Part shown: in pieces, positions 17,156 to 49,509 of the stretch
How the letters are laid out: each line of letters begins with the position of its first letter
Position numbering within the stretch: the stretch's first letter is position 1
From: Methyloprofundus sp.
GTDB taxonomy: Bacteria > Pseudomonadota > Gammaproteobacteria > Methylococcales > Methylomonadaceae
Assembly: GCA_012960135.1 (NCBI GenBank)
Contig: DUBW01000040.1
Span: forward strand, 185 to 64,184
Direction of reading: 5' to 3'
Length of the DNA stretch: 64,000 bases
Program-made: the position numbers and the translations under genes
The notes under the pieces: model-generated
Database searches by the model: none
What the model saw: the letters and a program-made list of their open reading frames with translations, nothing else
Told to the model about the DNA's origin: nothing

Positions 17156-18076
17156 ATGAAAATCCAATGGTTCCCGGGACATATGTACAAAGCGGGCAAG
17201 GAAATAAAAGAAACCTTGCCCGATATAGATTTACTGATTGAAATACTCGATGCACGTTTACCCTTTAGCAGTGCCAATCCATTATTATCAGAATTACGCG
17301 GCGATAAACCCTGTATAAAAATTCTCAATAAATCAGACCTGGCCGACCCAGTACGAACTCAACAATGGCAGGAGTTTCTAGAACAGGAAGACGGTGTGAA
17401 AACTCTTGCTCTAACAGCTGTGCATACTGATAAAGTTGATACAGTAATTGATTTATGTCGTAAATTAATCCCGCATAAAGCGACAGCTAGCAAAGTCATC
17501 CATGTGCTGATTATGGGTATTCCCAATGTTGGTAAGTCCACCCTAATTAATGCCCTGGCAGGACGCACAATTGCTAAGACAGGTAACGAACCTGCTGTGA
17601 CCAAACACCAACAGCGTATCGATTTGCGCAATGGCATTATTCTTTGCGACACCCCAGGTATGTTATGGCCAAATCTGGAAAACCATAATACCGGTTACCG
17701 TCTCGCAACGACTGGAGCAATCAAAGATACCGCTTTAAAACACGACGATGTCGCTTCGTTTGCCGGAGAGTTCTTTTTGCAGCATTACCCCGATGCCATA
17801 AAACAACGCTACCAACTGGAAACACTGCCAGCTACTGACTATGAACTACTACAACTCATCGGTAAAAAACGTGGTTGCTTACGTTCCGGTGGGCACATTG
17901 ATATGGATAAAGTTGCCAAAATTCTACTCTCTGAAATTCGGGATGGCACCTTAGGAAGAATCACCTTGGAAACACCAGATATGATGCAAACAGAACTAGC
18001 TGAATTGGCTATTATCCGTGCACAGAAAGCAGAAAAAAAAGGAAAACGCAAAAAGAACTGGAAAAGTGAACGATAG
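17156..18076 (+). CDS. ylqF: ribosome biogenesis GTPase YlqF/RbgA
   Basis: IQWFPGHM, circularly permuted NKSD / GIPNVGKST / DTPG. Confidence 0.95.
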   Translation: MKIQWFPGHMYKAGKEIKETLPDIDLLIEILDARLPFSSANPLLSELRGDKPCIKILNKSDLADPVRTQQWQEFLEQEDGVKTLALTAVHTDKVDTVIDLCRKLIPHKATASKVIHVLIMGIPNVGKSTLINALAGRTIAKTGNEPAVTKHQQRIDLRNGIILCDTPGMLWPNLENHNTGYRLATTGAIKDTALKHDDVASFAGEFFLQHYPDAIKQRYQLETLPATDYELLQLIGKKRGCLRSGGHIDMDKVAKILLSEIRDGTLGRITLETPDMMQTELAELAIIRAQKAEKKGKRKKNWKSER

Positions 18077-18277
18077 AAATTACTTTTCCCTTATTAGGTC
18101 ACAGCATAAGAAAGGCCCAACATCTTTAAAAGGCGTAAGTTTGTTTATCCAAGAAAAAACAAAGCTCTTTGTAAGTGTTGGTTTTTGGAACTTGAGAGTT
18201 ATTCTAAAATATTGAGTATAGTTGTATTCATAGCGATTCTACGTGCGGGGCGAGCCATCATCATAATCAAGCCATGC

Positions 18278-18576
18278 GAGGGGCCCCTCCTTTTTCGAAA
18301 GTTCATTTTGGGCACCCTAGCCCACAACGCGGCAAAAGCTGAACGGGACTGATTAAAATCTATGATGCCCTGATTCGCCCTGCGGCCACTAAATAAAAAT
18401 CCTAGAGGGGTTTTTATTTAGTGGCCGCAAATGGCTTGACGTGATGTCGGAATGCCTTGTATTTTCTCTACGCAAAAAGACGCTTCGAGAAAACACCCGG
18501 CCCTATCGCTATCAGGGACTAAAAATCTTCACTTCGCTTAAGCTCCGTTTCCAGGATTTTCAGCGGTAGAATTATT
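18278..18576. repeat. diverged copy (A) of a ~300-nt structured non-coding element
   Basis: Shares ordered blocks with 44687-44999 and 49206-49509; contains an 18-bp perfect hairpin at 18382-18428. Confidence 0.75.
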
Positions 18577-18749: not shown

Positions 18750-18834
18750 TGGTGCCGATGGCCGGAGTTGAACCGGCACGACTTGCGTCACCACCCCCTC
18801 AAGGTGGCGTGTCTACCAATTTCACCACATCGGC
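18750..18834 (-). tRNA. tRNA-Leu(GAG)
   Basis: Reverse complement GCCGATGTGGTGAAATTGGTAGACACG-CCACC-TTGAGGG-GGTGG...GGTTCAACTCCGGCCATCGGCACCA; canonical position after secG. Confidence 0.97.
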
Positions 18835-41923: not shown

Positions 41924-44590
41924 ATGACGGACAAGAATATAAATATGAATGAAAATGTAACAATATCAACAACCTGCCCATACTGTGGTGTGGGCTGTGG
42001 TGTTTTAGCGACTAACAAACCAGATGGCACCATTAGTGTGGAAGGTGATCAATCTCATCCTGCCAACTTGGGTAGATTATGTTCAAAAGGCTCAGCATTA
42101 GCTGATACTATTGGTCTAGATGGTCGATTACTTCATCCTCAAATAAATGGTCAACAAACTTCGTGGGATGAAGCATTAGATGCCGTTGCGACTGGTTTTC
42201 AAAAGGTGATTGATGAACATGGTCCAGATGCGGTGGCATTTTATGTCTCAGGTCAGCTATTAACTGAAGATTATTATGTGGCTAATAAGCTAATGAAAGG
42301 CTTTATTGGTAGTGCCAATATCGATACTAACTCTCGTTTATGTATGTCCTCTGCTGCGGCGGGTTATAAACGTGCTTTCGGTAGTGATTCCGTACCTTGT
42401 AGTTATGAAGACTTAGAAAAAGCAGATCTCATTGTTATCGAAGGTTCTAATACAGCGTGGTGTCACCCCGTTGTTTATCAACGTATTAGTAAAGCAAAGC
42501 AAGATAATCCTAATTTAAAGATTATCGTTATTGACCCTCGCAAAACGGCTACTTGCGATATCGCCGATTTACATTTATCTCTTAAACCGGGAACTGACGC
42601 TACATTATTCAATGGTTTATTACGTTATTTAAACCATAGTGATGTGATTGACTGGGATTTTGTTAATCATCATACAGAAGGTTTTTCTGATGCTTTATTA
42701 TCAGCACAAGACTCAGATCTTAATGTGGTTCATGTTGCACAGACGTGTGAACTAGGCAGCCATGATGTTGAGCTGTTTTTTCAACTATTTGCGGACACTG
42801 AAAAAGTGGTCACGCTATACTCTCAAGGCGTGAATCAATCTTCTTCAGGTACGGATAACTCAAATAGTATTATCAATTGTCACCTTGCAACAGGTCGTAT
42901 TGGTAAACTAGGGATGGGACCATTCTCAATTACGGGTCAACCTAATGCCATGGGTGGGCGTGAAGTAGGGGGCTTATCAAACCAACTTGCTGCTCATATG
43001 GAGTTGGAAAATCTAAAACACCACGATTTAGTTTCTCGTTTTTGGAATACAGATAATCTAGCATCAACGGCTGGCGCTAAAGCTGTCGACATATTTAATG
43101 ATGTTGCTAGCGGCAAGATAAAAGCGATTTGGATCATGGCAACAAACCCAGTGGTGACCTTACCTGATGCAGATAAAGTACGTGCTGCATTACAGGCGTG
43201 TGAGCTGGTTGCTGTGTCAGATTGTGAACAAAACACCGATACCACGGCTTGTGCCGACATCTTATTGCCAGCATTAGCTTGGGGCGAAAAGTGCGGAACA
43301 GTGACTAACTCCGAACGTCGTATTTCACGTCAACGTAACATCTTAGCTCACCCTGGTGAAGCAGAAGAAGATTGGTGGATAATCAGTCAAGTAGCTGAGA
43401 AACTAGGTTTTAAAGAACAGTTTAATTACGCATCAAGTGCTGATATTTTCCGTGAGCACGCTGCTTTATCAGGTTTCGAAAATGATGGGAAACGTGATTT
43501 TGATATTAGTGGTTTAGCCACATTAAGTGATGAACAATACCATCAACTTCAACCGATACAGTGGCCAGTAACAACTGCAAATCCACAAGGTACGGAGCGC
43601 TTATTTACTGACAAACAATTCTTTACACCAACGGGAAAAGCACAGTTTATTGCCATCACACCTCGACCACCGGTTAATGCAACAAACGAAGACTATCCTT
43701 TAGTATTAAATACAGGTCGAGTTAGAGATCAATGGCATACCATGACGCGTACTGCTCGCAGTGCGAAACTGAATGGCCATATCCCCGAGCCCTTTGTTGA
43801 AATTCACCCCCTTGATGCTGAAAAATGGTCAGTAGAACAAGGTGCCTTGGCTCAAGTTGATAGTCTATGGGGAACCCTGTTAGCACGTGTGCAGATTACT
43901 GATACTCAAAGAGTGGGTAGTATTTTTGTGCCTATGCATTGGAATAAGCAGACAGCTTCATTGTCTAGGGTTGATGCCGTAGTCAATCCCGTGGTTGATC
44001 CCATATCGGGTCAACCAGAATTTAAACATACACCGGTTAAGATTAAAACTTATCAGGCAGTGTGGCATGGCTTTATTTTATCTAGAACACGATTAACCCT
44101 ACCTGATACACACTACTGTGTATCTATTAAAGGAGAACAATTCTGGCGTTATGAGCTCGCGGGGGATGCAACGATTGATAATTATTCTGCGTGGGCAAAA
44201 CAGCAAATAGGTCAAGAGGGAGAATGGTTAGAGTTTGCTGACCAAACAGCACAGCGTTTTCGTGCTGGCATGATTAAACATGATCTGCTTGATGCAGTAG
44301 TATTTGTTGCTCCTAATCATGAATTACCTACACGAACATGGTTAAGTCAATTATTCACAGAGTCACCTTTAAGTGATGAAAGCCGGTCAAATTTACTTGC
44401 CGGTAAGCCAGGGGCAAATCAACCCGATGTCGGTGCTTTAGTCTGTGCTTGTTTTGGTGTGGGTGAAAATACAATTAAAGATGCCATTTCCTGTGGTGCA
44501 GCTAAATCTATTGAAGATATTGGCAAGCAACTTAAAGCAGGGACAAACTGTGGCTCATGTATCCCAGAGATCAAAAAATTATTTAGTTAA
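41924..44590 (+). CDS. nasA: assimilatory nitrate reductase catalytic subunit
   Basis: TCPYCGVGCG, LCSKG, NIDTNSRLCMSS, GQPNAMGGREVG, molybdopterin C-domain, C-terminal BFD [2Fe-2S]. Confidence 0.96.
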   Translation: MTDKNINMNENVTISTTCPYCGVGCGVLATNKPDGTISVEGDQSHPANLGRLCSKGSALADTIGLDGRLLHPQINGQQTSWDEALDAVATGFQKVIDEHGPDAVAFYVSGQLLTEDYYVANKLMKGFIGSANIDTNSRLCMSSAAAGYKRAFGSDSVPCSYEDLEKADLIVIEGSNTAWCHPVVYQRISKAKQDNPNLKIIVIDPRKTATCDIADLHLSLKPGTDATLFNGLLRYLNHSDVIDWDFVNHHTEGFSDALLSAQDSDLNVVHVAQTCELGSHDVELFFQLFADTEKVVTLYSQGVNQSSSGTDNSNSIINCHLATGRIGKLGMGPFSITGQPNAMGGREVGGLSNQLAAHMELENLKHHDLVSRFWNTDNLASTAGAKAVDIFNDVASGKIKAIWIMATNPVVTLPDADKVRAALQACELVAVSDCEQNTDTTACADILLPALAWGEKCGTVTNSERRISRQRNILAHPGEAEEDWWIISQVAEKLGFKEQFNYASSADIFREHAALSGFENDGKRDFDISGLATLSDEQYHQLQPIQWPVTTANPQGTERLFTDKQFFTPTGKAQFIAITPRPPVNATNEDYPLVLNTGRVRDQWHTMTRTARSAKLNGHIPEPFVEIHPLDAEKWSVEQGALAQVDSLWGTLLARVQITDTQRVGSIFVPMHWNKQTASLSRVDAVVNPVVDPISGQPEFKHTPVKIKTYQAVWHGFILSRTRLTLPDTHYCVSIKGEQFWRYELAGDATIDNYSAWAKQQIGQEGEWLEFADQTAQRFRAGMIKHDLLDAVVFVAPNHELPTRTWLSQLFTESPLSDESRSNLLAGKPGANQPDVGALVCACFGVGENTIKDAISCGAAKSIEDIGKQLKAGTNCGSCIPEIKKLFS

Positions 44591-44686: not shown

Positions 44687-44999
44687 AAACGGGGAGTCGC
44701 TATTTTTGCGAAAGCTTGTTTTGGGCATCCCAGCCCAAGCAAGCGGCAAAAACTTAACGCGACCACTAATGCCTCCGGCGCCCCAGATGTCCTGCGTACG
44801 TGCCACTTCGCCACTACCATCGTAAACTCGGCGCTGGCTTCGTAACACTCCCTCAAATGACTGGACGGCGTTTCGGAATGCCTTTTTTTTTGTCTCCACC
44901 TACGCTAGCGCTACGATTCCGACAAAACAACGGCCCTACGCCTTCTGGGGACTACCAGCCCTCGCGTTCGCTCTCCATAGCTGGCAGCGGTAGATTATT
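44687..44999. repeat. copy B of the ~300-nt structured non-coding element
   Basis: About 12 differences from 49206-49509; GC-rich, multiple hairpins. Confidence 0.9.
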
Positions 45000-45108
45000 A
45001 GACATGCCAATAAGTTTCCAGAGAGTAAAAATAGTTACAGAGTGACTATTTATTTATCTTGAGCAGGGGATGGAATCTATACGTGCTCTTTAATCGGCGA
45101 ACTTAAGC

Positions 45109-45223
45109 GCACTGAGACAGTGCGGAGCAGCTTTGTTTTGCGATATTGTGGTGCTCTCAACCGTTAGTAGGAAATTAAAAAACAATTACAAAACATAAAG
45201 TTATGACTTGGCATGATTCCCGC
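45109..45223 (+). promoter_or_regulatory. NtrC-like site and sigma54 promoter of narK
   Basis: GCAC-TGAGACA-GTGC at 45109-45123; TGGCATG-ATTC-CCGC at 45209-45223 with correct GG-N10-GC spacing. Confidence 0.7.
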
Positions 45224-45273
45224 TATATCTCTTTTGATACCAACGTTGGTACAGCTCTAGAAGAGATTCTCCT

Positions 45274-46740
45274 ATGTCTGCACAAAAGTTAAAACTATTA
45301 TCATTTAGTGGTAATACCAAAATCCTTCATCTAAGTTGGATGGCTTTTTTCATTAGTTTTGTTGTTTGGTTTAATCATGCGCCATTACTAATTGCAATAC
45401 AGCAGACACTTGGTCTTACTGATCAACAAATAAAAACAATCTTAATTCTTAATGTTGCATTGACTATTCCTGCCCGAATTGTTGTCGGGATGTTAGTTGA
45501 TAAATTTGGCCCAAGAATTACTTTTCCCTTACTACTTGGTGTTTCAAGTATTATCTGTTTCTTCTTTGCTTTAGCCCAAAATTTTGAACAATTAGCTGTT
45601 GCTCGTTTTATGCTTGGTTTTGTAGGTGCTGGTTTTGTTATCGGAATTAGAATGATTTCAGAATGGTATCCAGCTAAACAAGTTGGTCTAGCAAGTGGTA
45701 TTTATGGTGGTTTGGGTAACTTTGGTGCAGCTGGTGCAGCTGTCTCTTTACCTACGATTGCACTGATGTTTGGTGGTGACGATGGCTGGCGTTATGCGGT
45801 TGCGTTAACAGGTGTTATTGCACTTATCTATGCCTTCATTTACTACAATGCAGTATCAGATACTCCAAAAGGGTCAACATACTTTAAACCTAAAAAATCA
45901 GGTGGCTTAGAAGTAACCAGTAAAGGTGACCTTTATTTTTACTTATTCATGAACATTCCAATGTATGCAGCCTTAGCTGTACTTGCATGGAAACTATCGC
46001 CAAGTGGTGTTAGCTTATTAACGGCTGAAGTGGTACAAGCTATTTATATCGGTTTGTTTGCCCTGTATTTTTATCAGGCTTACCACATCTACCAAGTAAA
46101 CAAAGAAATCTTTGTTAAAGCGGTGCCAACCATTCATCGTTACAAATTTAAACAAATTGCTGTGTTAGATTTAACCTATATGGTTGCATTTGGTTCAGAG
46201 CTAGCTGTTGTATCAATGTTGCCTTTATTCTTCTTTGAGACCTTTCAGATCAGTGCAGTTCAAGCGGGTATCTTGGCATCAAGTTTTGCCTTTATGAACC
46301 TAGTGTCACGTCCAACAGGTGGCTGGTTGAGTGACCGTTTTGGTCGTAAAAATGCACTTAGCATTTGTATAGCCGGCTTGTCTATTGGGTATTATGTGAT
46401 GAGCCAAATTACCTCTGAATGGTCCATTGCTCTTGCGGTGTTAGCATCAATGGCATGTGCTTTCTTTGTTAATGCTGGCTGTGGAGCTGTGTTTGCCGTT
46501 GTTCCATTAGTACAACGTCGTTTAACTGGGCAAATTGCAGGTATGGCAGGTGCTTACGGTAATATTGGCGCCTTGGTTTTCTTAACTATTTTGTCTTTAG
46601 TTACAACTGAAACATTCTTTTTAGTGATTGCGGCAACAGCAATTGTGACATTATTAGCAGTTCAATTTATGGATGAACCAAAAGGCCAAATGGCTGAAAT
46701 TCTACCTGATGGCACAGTTCAAATGATTGACGTAAACTAG
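45274..46740 (+). CDS. narK: MFS nitrate/nitrite transporter (NarK/NasA family)
   Basis: Nitrate signature [32 protein letters not shown]. Confidence 0.92.
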
Positions 46741-46759
46741 ACGTCAGTAGATATAAAAT

Positions 46760-46806
46760 AAACGTAACAGTCCACTTTCAAAGATTGAAGGTGGACTGTT
46801 ACGTTT
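46760..46806 (+). terminator. strong intercistronic stem-loop
   Basis: AAACGTAACAGTCCAC-TTTCAA-AGA-TTGAAG-GTGGACTGTTACGTTT; no long U-tract. Confidence 0.6.
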
Positions 46807-46821
46807 CTCTGAGGATGAAAA

Positions 46822-48546
46822 ATGACAGCCAAATTAAAAGTCAGTGTTGGTTCTTATTCTGATAAGGGTATAAAAGAAGAAAACCAAGACTCGATAGGTC
46901 ATATGATTCCAACTAATTTAAACTTATTATCGGCAAAAGGTGCTGCCTTCACTTTAGCTGATGGTGTCAGTAGTAGTTCTGAAGCAAAACAAGCAAGCCA
47001 AACTTGTGTGACAGGATTTTTAAATGATTACTTCAGTACTCCTGATTCCTGGTCTGTTAAAAAATCAGGTGGCAAAGTACTTACATCAATTAATACATGG
47101 TTATACAGTCAAAGCAATCAATTTCAAGATATTTCTCGTGGTTTAGCAAGTACATTTTGTGGCTTAATTTTGAAGTCCACAACAGCTCATCTTTTTCACG
47201 TTGGTGATTCACGTATATATCAACTGAGAGCGAATAGTTTAGAGCAATTAACAACTGATCATCGAATCCATATGCCTGGTGAGAAAGAGTATCTTGGTCG
47301 GGCAATGGGGGTTGATTATCGTTTAGATATTGATTATAGAAAAGTACCAACAGAAGTTGGTGATCTATTCTTTATTTCTACAGATGGCGTACATGATTAC
47401 CTATCTGATAAAGAGATTAAGAAAATACTGACATCAGATGAAACAAATTTAACACTTATATGTGAACAAATAGTTGTTCACTCATTAAAACAGGGTAGCC
47501 TTGATAATGTAAGTTGCCAGTTATTACGAATTGATCAACTTCCATCACAAGATGCAGATGAGATTTTTTCTAAATTAACAGCGCTACCATTTCCACCAGA
47601 ATTATATGAAGGTGTTGTTTTAGATGGCTATCGCATTACAAGGGAGTTACACGCAAGTTCAACAAGTCAGCTATATCTCGCTATTGACACAGATACTGAT
47701 GAAAAAGTCGTCATTAAAACACCTTCAGTCAATTTTGAAGATGATCCTGCCTATCTAGAACGATTTCAACTTGAAGAGTGGGCTGGCCGACGACTTGACT
47801 GCCCGCATGTTATTAGGACTATTGAGCAACACCGACCTCGTCGTTTTCTTTACTATGTGATGGAATATATTGAGGGAAAAACCTTAGAACAATGGATTGA
47901 AGACCAGACAGAAGTTGATTTAACCATGATTAGAAACATTGTTTCTCAAGCTATTTCAGGCCTGAGAGCATTTCATCGGCTTGATATGCTTCATCAAGAT
48001 ATCAAGCCTGGCAACATCATGATAACCGCAGAAGGTTTGGTTAAAATTATCGACTTTGGTTCAACCAAAATTGCTGGCATTGCTGATATTTCTACACCGA
48101 TTGAACGTAAAGAGTTACTGGGTACAAAACACTATACTGCACCTGAATACCTTATTGAACAATCAGGCACAACACAATCTGACCTATTTTCTCTTGGCTG
48201 TATTATTTATGAAATGATTACCGCTAAGCTTCCCTATGGTGATGGACTTGCCAAAGCAGCAGATCAGCGATCACTGAATCGTTTAAAGTACATACCGATT
48301 AGTAACCATATAGCAAATATTCCCCATTGGGTGGATAAGGCAATCAGAACAGCTGTTCAAATTGACCCAGATAATCGTTATGAAAAATTATCAGAACTTG
48401 AATCAGATTTGAGAAAACCAAACCCTAATTATTTGAGAGAAGATCAACTTCCATTGCTAGAACGTAATCCACTTGGTTTTTGGAAGGCTTTTGCAGGGAT
48501 ATTATTTGTATTGAATTTGATATTAGCTTATTTATTGCTTAGATAG
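46822..48546 (+). CDS. bifunctional PP2C phosphatase / Ser-Thr protein kinase, membrane anchored
   Basis: PP2C motifs ADGVS, HVGDSRIY, TDG, DNVS; kinase motifs HQDIKPGN, DFGS, YTAPE; C-terminal TM. Confidence 0.92.
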   Translation: MTAKLKVSVGSYSDKGIKEENQDSIGHMIPTNLNLLSAKGAAFTLADGVSSSSEAKQASQTCVTGFLNDYFSTPDSWSVKKSGGKVLTSINTWLYSQSNQFQDISRGLASTFCGLILKSTTAHLFHVGDSRIYQLRANSLEQLTTDHRIHMPGEKEYLGRAMGVDYRLDIDYRKVPTEVGDLFFISTDGVHDYLSDKEIKKILTSDETNLTLICEQIVVHSLKQGSLDNVSCQLLRIDQLPSQDADEIFSKLTALPFPPELYEGVVLDGYRITRELHASSTSQLYLAIDTDTDEKVVIKTPSVNFEDDPAYLERFQLEEWAGRRLDCPHVIRTIEQHRPRRFLYYVMEYIEGKTLEQWIEDQTEVDLTMIRNIVSQAISGLRAFHRLDMLHQDIKPGNIMITAEGLVKIIDFGSTKIAGIADISTPIERKELLGTKHYTAPEYLIEQSGTTQSDLFSLGCIIYEMITAKLPYGDGLAKAADQRSLNRLKYIPISNHIANIPHWVDKAIRTAVQIDPDNRYEKLSELESDLRKPNPNYLREDQLPLLERNPLGFWKAFAGILFVLNLILAYLLLR

Positions 48547-48569
48547 GGGTGACTTTATCTAACTGGTTT

Positions 48570-48838
48570 GTAACTACTCAGCGAAGCTGAGTAGTTCAAT
48601 GAAATTATAAAGAAAATCCAGGTAACTTCCTCTCAAAGACCAGCGTCATTGCCTCAGTTGCACTGCCGCCCTGTTGTCGGCAAGTTGATAAATAACCTCT
48701 GACACGACAAAACATCTCGGCGCCCTGGGTACTGCGAAAACAGCCCCATATTTTCTGTTGAACTTTGGTCATACGAATCGAATTTCCAGCGGCATTATTG
48801 GTAAAGGATACGTAGCCATTTGTCATAAAGCGCAGCCC
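48570..48838 (-). mobile_element. IS66-family transposase 3' remnant with right end
   Basis: LRFMTNGYVSFTNN.A..IRMTKVQQK..GCFRS..GAEMFCRVRGYLST; ends at GCTGAGTAGTTAC (48570-48582), with a duplicated IR forming a hairpin. Confidence 0.82.
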
Positions 48839-48839
48839 C

Positions 48840-49205
48840 CCCCTGTGTCAGGATAGTTATCACCATAAACAAATGCTGAGATTCTTCCACCGTTACAATA
48901 TCAGGAATACGCACGGTTTTAGGAGGCCTGATTAATTGGAGATCTGTCCAGGTTTTTTTGTAATACCTGTGTATAAAAAAACTTCAGTCCATAAAGACCC
49001 AGTTTAACCGCACTCCAGGACAAACGATCAAGTAAATCATGAAAATAATCCAGTAATTGAACCTGGGTTAAATGCTCTAACTGATAGTTGAAATACTCAC
49101 CAACACGCCACATTGCGCAGGAGTATGCATCAATCGTCCTGGGTTGCAGACCCTTCAACATAAGATGTTTGCAGTGTAACTCATACTGACGATTGAAATG
49201 TGCTG
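48840..49205 (-). pseudogene. N-terminal fragment of a tyrosine recombinase of the type paired with IS91-like transposases
   Basis: HLMLKGLQPRTIDAY..DYFHDLL..SWSAVKL.LYGLKFFY, frameshift to LIRPPKTVRIPDIVTVEE, then fused to the IS66 remnant. Confidence 0.78.
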
Positions 49206-49509
49206 AAACGGGGGAGTCGCTATTTTTGCGAAAGCTTGTTTTGGGCATCCCAGCCCAAGCAAGCGGCAAAAAATTAACGCGACCACTAATGCCTTCGGCG
49301 CCCCAGACGTCCTGCATACGTGCCACTTCACCACTACCATCGTAAACTCGGCGCTGGCTTCGTAACACTCCCTCAAATGACTGGACGACGTTTCGGAATG
49401 CCTTTTATTTTGTCTCCACCTACGCTCGCGCTCCGATTCCGACAAAACAACGGCCCTACCCCTTCTGGGGACTACCAGCCCTCGCGTTCGCTCTCCATGG
49501 CTGGCAGCG
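49206..49509. repeat. copy C of the ~300-nt structured non-coding element
   Basis: Direct repeat of 44687-44990; directly upstream of the integrase fragment on the minus strand. Confidence 0.9.

Follow-up and report, generated by a model that had tools for sequence, protein, structure and literature searches.

What occupies the spacer that separates the convergent genes for a YlqF-like GTPase and tRNA-Leu(GAG) in Methyloprofundus sp., and how might such a sequence move? The spacer lies in a 64,000-nt stretch of contig DUBW01000040.1, the whole of which was analysed and is here called the window. It is flanked by the gene for a circularly permuted, YlqF/RsgA-type GTPase (17156-18076, plus strand) and by tRNA-Leu(GAG) (18750-18834, minus strand), after which come secG and tpiA. 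The original prediction, made from the letters alone, had placed at 18278-18576 a cryptic, diverged third member of a family of structured non-coding sequences, with ordered blocks in common with 44687-44999. The blocks of the two regions do correspond in alignment, and an element is present in the spacer, with true limits of 18276..18565 (copy A; minus strand, 290 nt, A-type). Its plus strand reads G+CGAGGGG...TTTTCAGCG. The last block of the prediction, CAGCGGTAGA(A)TTATT, belongs only partly to the element, which stops at CAGCG (18565); GTAGAATTATT is flank, since a relative without the element at that place still has GTAGAATTATT. The tRNA-Leu side of the spacer in the relative begins exactly after CAGCG and retains the tetranucleotide GTAG (18566..18569, unstranded), which is target and not element.

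Copies, subfamilies and distribution of the repeat

Two further copies were located in the window, both B-type and both on the minus strand: copy B (44689..44989, 301 nt, then GTAG) and copy C (49208..49509, 302 nt, then AATG), which is 96% identical to copy B. The motif TTTTGGGCANCCNAGCCCA occurred three times in the window, compared to 0.19 expected. Copies B and C (44689-49509) form direct repeats 4.5 kb apart and enclose two long ORFs (45274-46740 and 46822-48546), the enclosed block lying downstream of a third (41924-44590). Recombination between copies B and C could delete or amplify this 4.5-kb block. No promoter or terminator above chance was found in copy A, and no ORF was common to the different subfamilies of the element, marking it as non-coding.

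A family of three members was not upheld. With copy B as BLAST query, 58 pieces were recovered from its own 2.5-Mb, 92-contig genome, and iterated nhmmer returned 87 pieces that merged into 69 elements or fragments. About 45 of the 69 are full-length, and many lie at contig ends. Copy A was missed with copy B as query; used as a query itself it returned at least 10 further near-full copies of 87-93% identity, and it is therefore a member of a second subfamily (A-type) and not an isolated relic. A third subfamily (C-type) carries another head on the common body. Many copies are mosaic, with common ends and exchanged middles, others have internal deletions, and element length in the family is approximately 285-320 nt.

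Scanning one genome per species for an exact pattern identified more than 106 loci, all in Methylococcales, in one Methylophaga MAG or in co-binned symbiont MAGs. Hosts included Methylobacter tundripaludum SV96, Methylomonas, Methylomicrobium, Methyloglobulus and Methylomarinum, as well as the gill-dwelling methanotrophic symbionts of Bathymodiolus japonicus and B. platifrons. M. tundripaludum SV96 has about 20 copies. Of 201 Methylococcales genomes searched with a B-type query, 67 had a match, as had 31 of the 52 genera; in more distant families only the internal core was left. B-type copies 95-97% identical to that at 44689-44989 of the window were present in other genera and in another family (G018, G107, G214), which argues for horizontal spread and, on sequence identity, suggests that the transfer was recent. 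Large plasmids of Methylomonas and Methylobacter also carried copies, as did a few IMG/VR contigs, and the GenBank phage set had none. One Methylococcales MAG held 25 copies of 99-100% identity, indicating a recent burst.

Ends, target and insertion

The ends of the element are asymmetric. On the plus strand, A- and B-type copies start with one variable base (A, G or T) and then CGGGGAG, and C-type copies with C(A/T)GGCGCGCC; the plus-strand end is a hairpin directly followed by CAGCG, which was present in 116 of 129 unique copies. The folded strand thus reads 5'-CGCUG-hairpin-UAGU... and is inserted 3' of C-N-N-N. Comparison of the two ends revealed no terminal inverted repeats. Filled sites compared to empty sites gave 242 matches representing many independent insertions (more than 10 sites), several at 98-100% identity, and the flanks of filled sites join exactly in the empty ones, with neither duplication nor loss of target. 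These exact joins at more than 10 independent sites establish the element as mobile.

The fourth base past CAGCG was G in 91% of the 129 unique sites (C at -4 on the folded strand) and in 10 of 10 fresh copies, and the base preceding the other end was seldom C. The GTAG beside copy A is accordingly NNNG on the plus strand and CNNN on the folded strand, and the occurrence of GTAG beside both copies A and B is explained by this preference. Copies were found within other mobile elements and within genes. Those in the genome of the window were mainly intergenic and of mixed orientation to neighbouring genes, avoided divergent-promoter spacers (3 of 42) and favoured the 3' ends of genes; truncation was not in excess at either single end.

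In being small, non-coding, high-copy and mainly intergenic, with internal deletions and mosaics, the element resembles classical MITEs (Correia, ERIC, RPE). Those carry terminal inverted repeats and are flanked by target-site duplications made by DDE transposases, however, and having neither, the element was rejected as a DDE-derived MITE.

Covarying fold and folding strand

The original prediction contained two stems, and both were recovered where it had put them. TTTTCTC (18462-18468) and GAGAAAA (18487-18493) form hairpin P8 (18462..18493, minus strand), which covaries with TTTTGTC/GACAAAA in B-type copies and TTTTCAC/GTGAAAA in Methylobacter. AAAATC (18522-18527) and GATTTT (18555-18560) form the subterminal hairpin P9, which covaries with CCAGC/GCTGG and together with the terminal CAGCG (18561-18565) spans 18522..18565 (minus strand). 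The central hairpin, P7 (18384..18426, minus strand), has a subfamily-specific sequence at the same position, again as had been noted.

Helices were tested on a MAFFT alignment of 32 non-redundant cores, with shuffles and slid partners as controls. Across five helices, 82.3% of cells were paired compared to 66.3% in shuffled and 35-52% in slid controls, and double changes were seen in 22 of the 26 pairs. In the A-, B- and Methylobacter types the head domain forms a long, irregular hairpin arm (P1-P4; 18282..18350, minus strand) that was 91.9% paired compared to 31-47% when slid; its base is P1 (18283-18287 with 18345-18349, minus strand) and its tip is P4 (GGGC 18310-18313 with GCCC 18320-18323, minus strand). 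The reverse alignment of the complete element gave eight helices with 48 pairs that were 92.5% paired (39-45% slid); 21 of the 48 were double-changed, and 0 of 500 shuffles attained these values. Helix variants are inherited by subfamilies, so that independent events are fewer than these cell counts suggest. Strongly conserved unpaired stretches accompany the fold.

Besides the local hairpins, two long-range helices were identified, all strands of which are on the minus strand. P6 pairs CCCTGAT (18368..18374) with ATCAGGG (18511..18517) and varies as CCCCAGA/TCTGGGG, CCCTGAT/ATCAGGG, CCCCGAT/ATCGGGG, CTCCAG/CTGGAG and CTTTG/CAAAG. P10 pairs GTGAT (18441..18445) with ATCGC (18505..18509) and varies as GGCGT/ACGCC, GCGAT/ATCGC and GCCGT/ACGGC. 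The mini-hairpin P5 (18358..18366, minus strand) is ATC/GAT in copy A and GCC/GGC in B-type copies, with all three of its pairs changing on both sides. On the folded strand the terminal GCU also pairs with AGU past the P9 hairpin, and both termini are brought to a single junction of P9, P6, P5 and P1. One multi-helix fold is kept although subfamilies swap modules. The head of copy A (window 18276-18292) has mutated to a perfect 12-nt palindrome, GAGGGGCCCCTC, at the cost of one P1 pair (C.A in place of the U-A of the subfamily), and copy A may therefore be decaying.

The minus strand of the window was identified as the folding strand from folding energies, z-scores and the reverse alignment, opposite to the strand read in the prediction. 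The reverse strand was more stable in 32 of 32 representatives, by a mean of 18 kcal/mol. With a dinucleotide-shuffle control the mean z was -3.03 for the reverse strand compared to -1.67 for the forward (lower in 26 of 32; Wilcoxon p = 3.5e-6), and RNAalifold gave -40.6 and -31.9 kcal/mol, respectively. At three positions most sequences have G.U and the others G-C or A-U; read on the opposite strand, the G.U pairs would be A.C mismatches. A wobble count on the forward alignment gave no strand signal (35 vs 40), owing to register errors.

Judged by the covariation counts over the whole family, selection is acting on the fold, as had been predicted. The proposal of a structured RNA or single-stranded DNA site outside any named family also held: no Rfam 15 family matched the element at the gathering score or at E<=10 when copies A and B, C-type copies and other loci were searched, the sole matches in these loci being tRNAs and genuine group II introns. 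In RefSeq nothing was annotated beneath a plasmid copy, and the literature searched, including work on mussel-symbiont mobile elements, did not describe the repeat. The prediction had overlooked the mobility, the order-wide spread and the two long-range helices.

Candidate movers and modes of movement

No copy with a transposase between its ends was found and no long version of the element was detected, the two ends being far apart only in one IS110-interrupted copy. Y1 HUH genes, including RAYT-like genes of 230-250 aa, were present in 7 of 7 genus genomes searched, but no ends common to the element and a Y1 (TnpA)-encoding element were found. IS200 (Y1) was rejected as the autonomous partner, the hairpin ends of the IS200 copies of the genus being unrelated to those of the element. 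A 640-nt IS200 element occurs in about 40 copies in one genus genome (G012:C1; L160, L168, L170-L172). Two of its hairpin motifs, CCCCCAGC-TCT-GCTGGGGGACT (or CCCCAG...CTGGGGGACT) and GCCTCCGGC, resemble P6 and P5 of the element, a likeness that may be due to chance.

In this genome the intact RAYT-like gene has no flanking copy of the element. RAYT-like pseudogene units beside two truncated copies were rejected as separate elements, bounded by inverted REP-like ends of their own. Units of this kind (IS200-type Y1; ends AAAACCAATAGGGTCAGAC...) lie outside the window in the same genome (G000 C19:33789-34277, C86:3363-3470, C59:82200-82646). In the two truncated copies the unit abuts TTTTGG^GCA, once per orientation, suggesting that this is its target.

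IS91 (Y2) was discarded as the autonomous partner on two counts: the IS91 ends, GTTGGACG... and ...TTCGTTG, are unrelated to the element, and Y2 genes are missing from element-rich genomes. The IS91-family element concerned is 2.44 kb long, is present in 77 copies in one closed genus genome (G007:C1; L155-L157), often in tandem pairs, and encodes a 251-aa ORF, which we take to be possibly an integrase, and a 367-aa Y2 transposase. Adjacency to IS110 was incidental, the nearby IS110 copies being separate elements. Where the ends of the IS110 elements and group II introns were defined, they too were unrelated to those of the repeat. A 1210-nt IS110-family element with a CT core lies inside a C-type copy at ACGTCCT^GCGTCC (L189, G027:C6:1979218-1980722), and another copy of it is broken off by a C-type copy (L186), a sign of nested activity; this IS110-family element appears to target the repeat.

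Reverse transcriptases were also rejected as partners, belonging as they do to ordinary group II introns. Intact introns were found less than 1 kb from element copies at G000:C86:990-2900 (L191) and at L106:3950-5950 (M. tundripaludum SV96), with RT ORFs of 416 and 432 aa and Rfam D1-D4 and domain V matches; their proximity was judged to reflect clustering of mobile DNA and not partnership. The element itself is not an ORF-less group II intron, its boundaries being DCGGGG and CAGCG instead of GUGYG and AY, with no domain V match.

The reading we favour, tentatively and at slightly less than an even chance, is that the element is a non-autonomous, non-coding sequence that would leave one site and enter another as a folded single strand, moved by a trans-acting HUH-type enzyme. 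The closest mechanism is most likely the "peel and paste" of the IS200/IS605 type, with which scarless insertion, asymmetric ends, a hairpin at the cut, a 5' target motif and a partial lagging-strand bias are consistent. The folded single strand would most likely be ssDNA on the lagging-strand template. For a candidate HUH enzyme (IS200/IS605 TnpA or RAYT-like) acting in trans, the recognition site would be the subterminal hairpin together with the conserved bases that flank it (ACUA ... CAGCG), and the cut would fall immediately next to the hairpin.

The lagging-strand bias differed between genomes. The folded strand was on the G-rich strand (lagging-strand template) in 30 of 41 copies at the loci of the B. 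japonicus symbiont (p = 0.004), and in the burst genome 10 of the 12 main-contig copies had it on the lagging-strand template, relative to dnaA. The bias was weak in a closed relative and absent in the genome of the window, where orientations split 26:20 (26 of 46 copies).

Several features are common to the element, to IS200/IS605 derivatives of the PATE type and to the REPIN/RAYT system. All lack terminal inverted repeats and target duplication and have strand-specific, subterminal hairpins with short conserved flanking bases. Less clearly, they would also have in common insertion directly 3' of a short target motif, as read on the active strand, and some lagging-strand-template bias. PATE-type and REPIN elements are mobilised in trans, and the genus of the element has Y1 HUH genes. 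Unlike them, the element is about 300 nt long with an eight-helix fold that includes long-range helices, has a hairpin 5 nt from the cut and a single C at -4 as its target, and bears ends unrelated to the IS200 copies and RAYT-like units examined, with no Y1 gene found between or beside them. The targets of IS608 and ISDra2 are 4-5 nt, whereas that of the element is one base (91%). IS91/ISCR and Helitron-type rolling-circle elements and their non-autonomous forms share the lack of duplication and inverted repeats, mosaic interiors, a hairpin just inside one end, a short conserved terminal motif and an abutting tetranucleotide; the IS91-family element of the genus differs in its unrelated ends, and Y2 genes are missing from element-rich genomes, as described above. 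Caution about an HUH enzyme is called for by the lack of a matching enzyme-bearing element, the single-base target and a fold that uses all 300 nt. Such a fold, with two long-range helices, would exceed the known needs of HUH transposases and would suit RNA at least as well.

The main rival, which we think rather unlikely, is an RNA-based reading. Here the functional and perhaps mobile form would be an RNA with the multi-helix fold, transcribed from the minus strand of the window, that spreads through an RNA intermediate (by reverse splicing or reverse transcription) or has a ribozyme-like or ribonucleoprotein role. The whole-element fold, its two long-range helices and the conserved unpaired stretches are in keeping with this, but an internal promoter or terminator was not found and copies face either way relative to neighbouring genes. 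Certain fixed positions have conserved G.U pairs; DNA, however, also tolerates G.T pairs. Different 5' or 3' heads on a common body recall SINEs, although truncation is not concentrated at one end. Exact insertion without duplication would be expected of reverse splicing, and group II intron reverse transcriptases are present in these genomes, yet group I and group II intron signatures and Rfam ribozyme matches are lacking and the flanks are too variable for guide-target pairing. Like HEARO/omega RNA, IS110 bridge RNA and ORF-less group II introns, the element is a non-coding, structured unit some hundreds of nt long that coincides with a mobile-element end and inserts precisely. It differs from them in that no partner protein, programmed target, intron-boundary or domain V signature, or Rfam match was found.

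Doubtful as well, and marginally more so, is a new mobile class. Its members would be self-folding single strands of about 300 nt (RNA or DNA) whose whole eight-helix architecture, and not the ends alone, would serve as the enzyme substrate and which have persisted and moved horizontally across the order. A host-encoded enzyme, or one of a new type, would cut beside the hairpin and join the strand next to a single C.

Distinctly less probable is a REP-like nature of the copies, with the host retaining them because the fold has a cellular role, such as stabilising or ending mRNA or binding nucleoid proteins, with spread being slow and secondary. A host role would account for copies being mainly between genes, away from divergent promoters (3 of 42) and towards gene 3' ends, and for a family that is old and order-wide. 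Bursts of identical copies, copies within other mobile elements and genes and the many decayed or internally deleted copies argue otherwise, as do the lack of a terminator-like feature and the 95-97% identity across families, which implies horizontal spread.

A transposon-linked guide RNA whose scaffold occurs as stand-alone copies (omega RNA of TnpB/IscB, or an IS110 bridge RNA) is alike in size and structural complexity and also begins exactly at an element end, but this is largely refuted and has only a very slight probability: the TnpB domain (PF07282) had no match in 8 genus genomes in which the positive control worked, the IscB-type RRXRR domain (PF14239) had none in 9 genomes (where the control was silent), IS110 adjacency was by chance only, insertion sites have one common base in variable flanks instead of a programmed 10-16-nt target, junctions have neither microhomology nor a repeated 2-nt core, and the Rfam HEARO and IS605-orfB RNA families do not match.

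On the features of its sequence, then, the element in the spacer is a non-autonomous mobile repeat without inverted repeats or target duplication that is not assigned to any named family (Rfam 15 searched). It may have gone unannotated because it offers repeat and IS finders no ORF, inverted repeats or duplication to detect. Some genomes of Methylococcales, an order that includes deep-sea mussel gill symbionts, hold dozens to hundreds of copies. Assemblies are broken by the element, with many contigs ending within copies. Copies lie within other mobile elements and also flank gene blocks in matching orientation (4.5 kb for copies B and C), and so can bring about deletions, duplications and rearrangements. 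For a bacterial repeat, the fold shows an unusual wealth of covariation, which makes possible a covariance model for mapping and experiments on the recognising enzyme. A mover that proved to be new would represent a new mechanism of transposition; a Y1 HUH enzyme in that role would widen the known recognition range of such enzymes.
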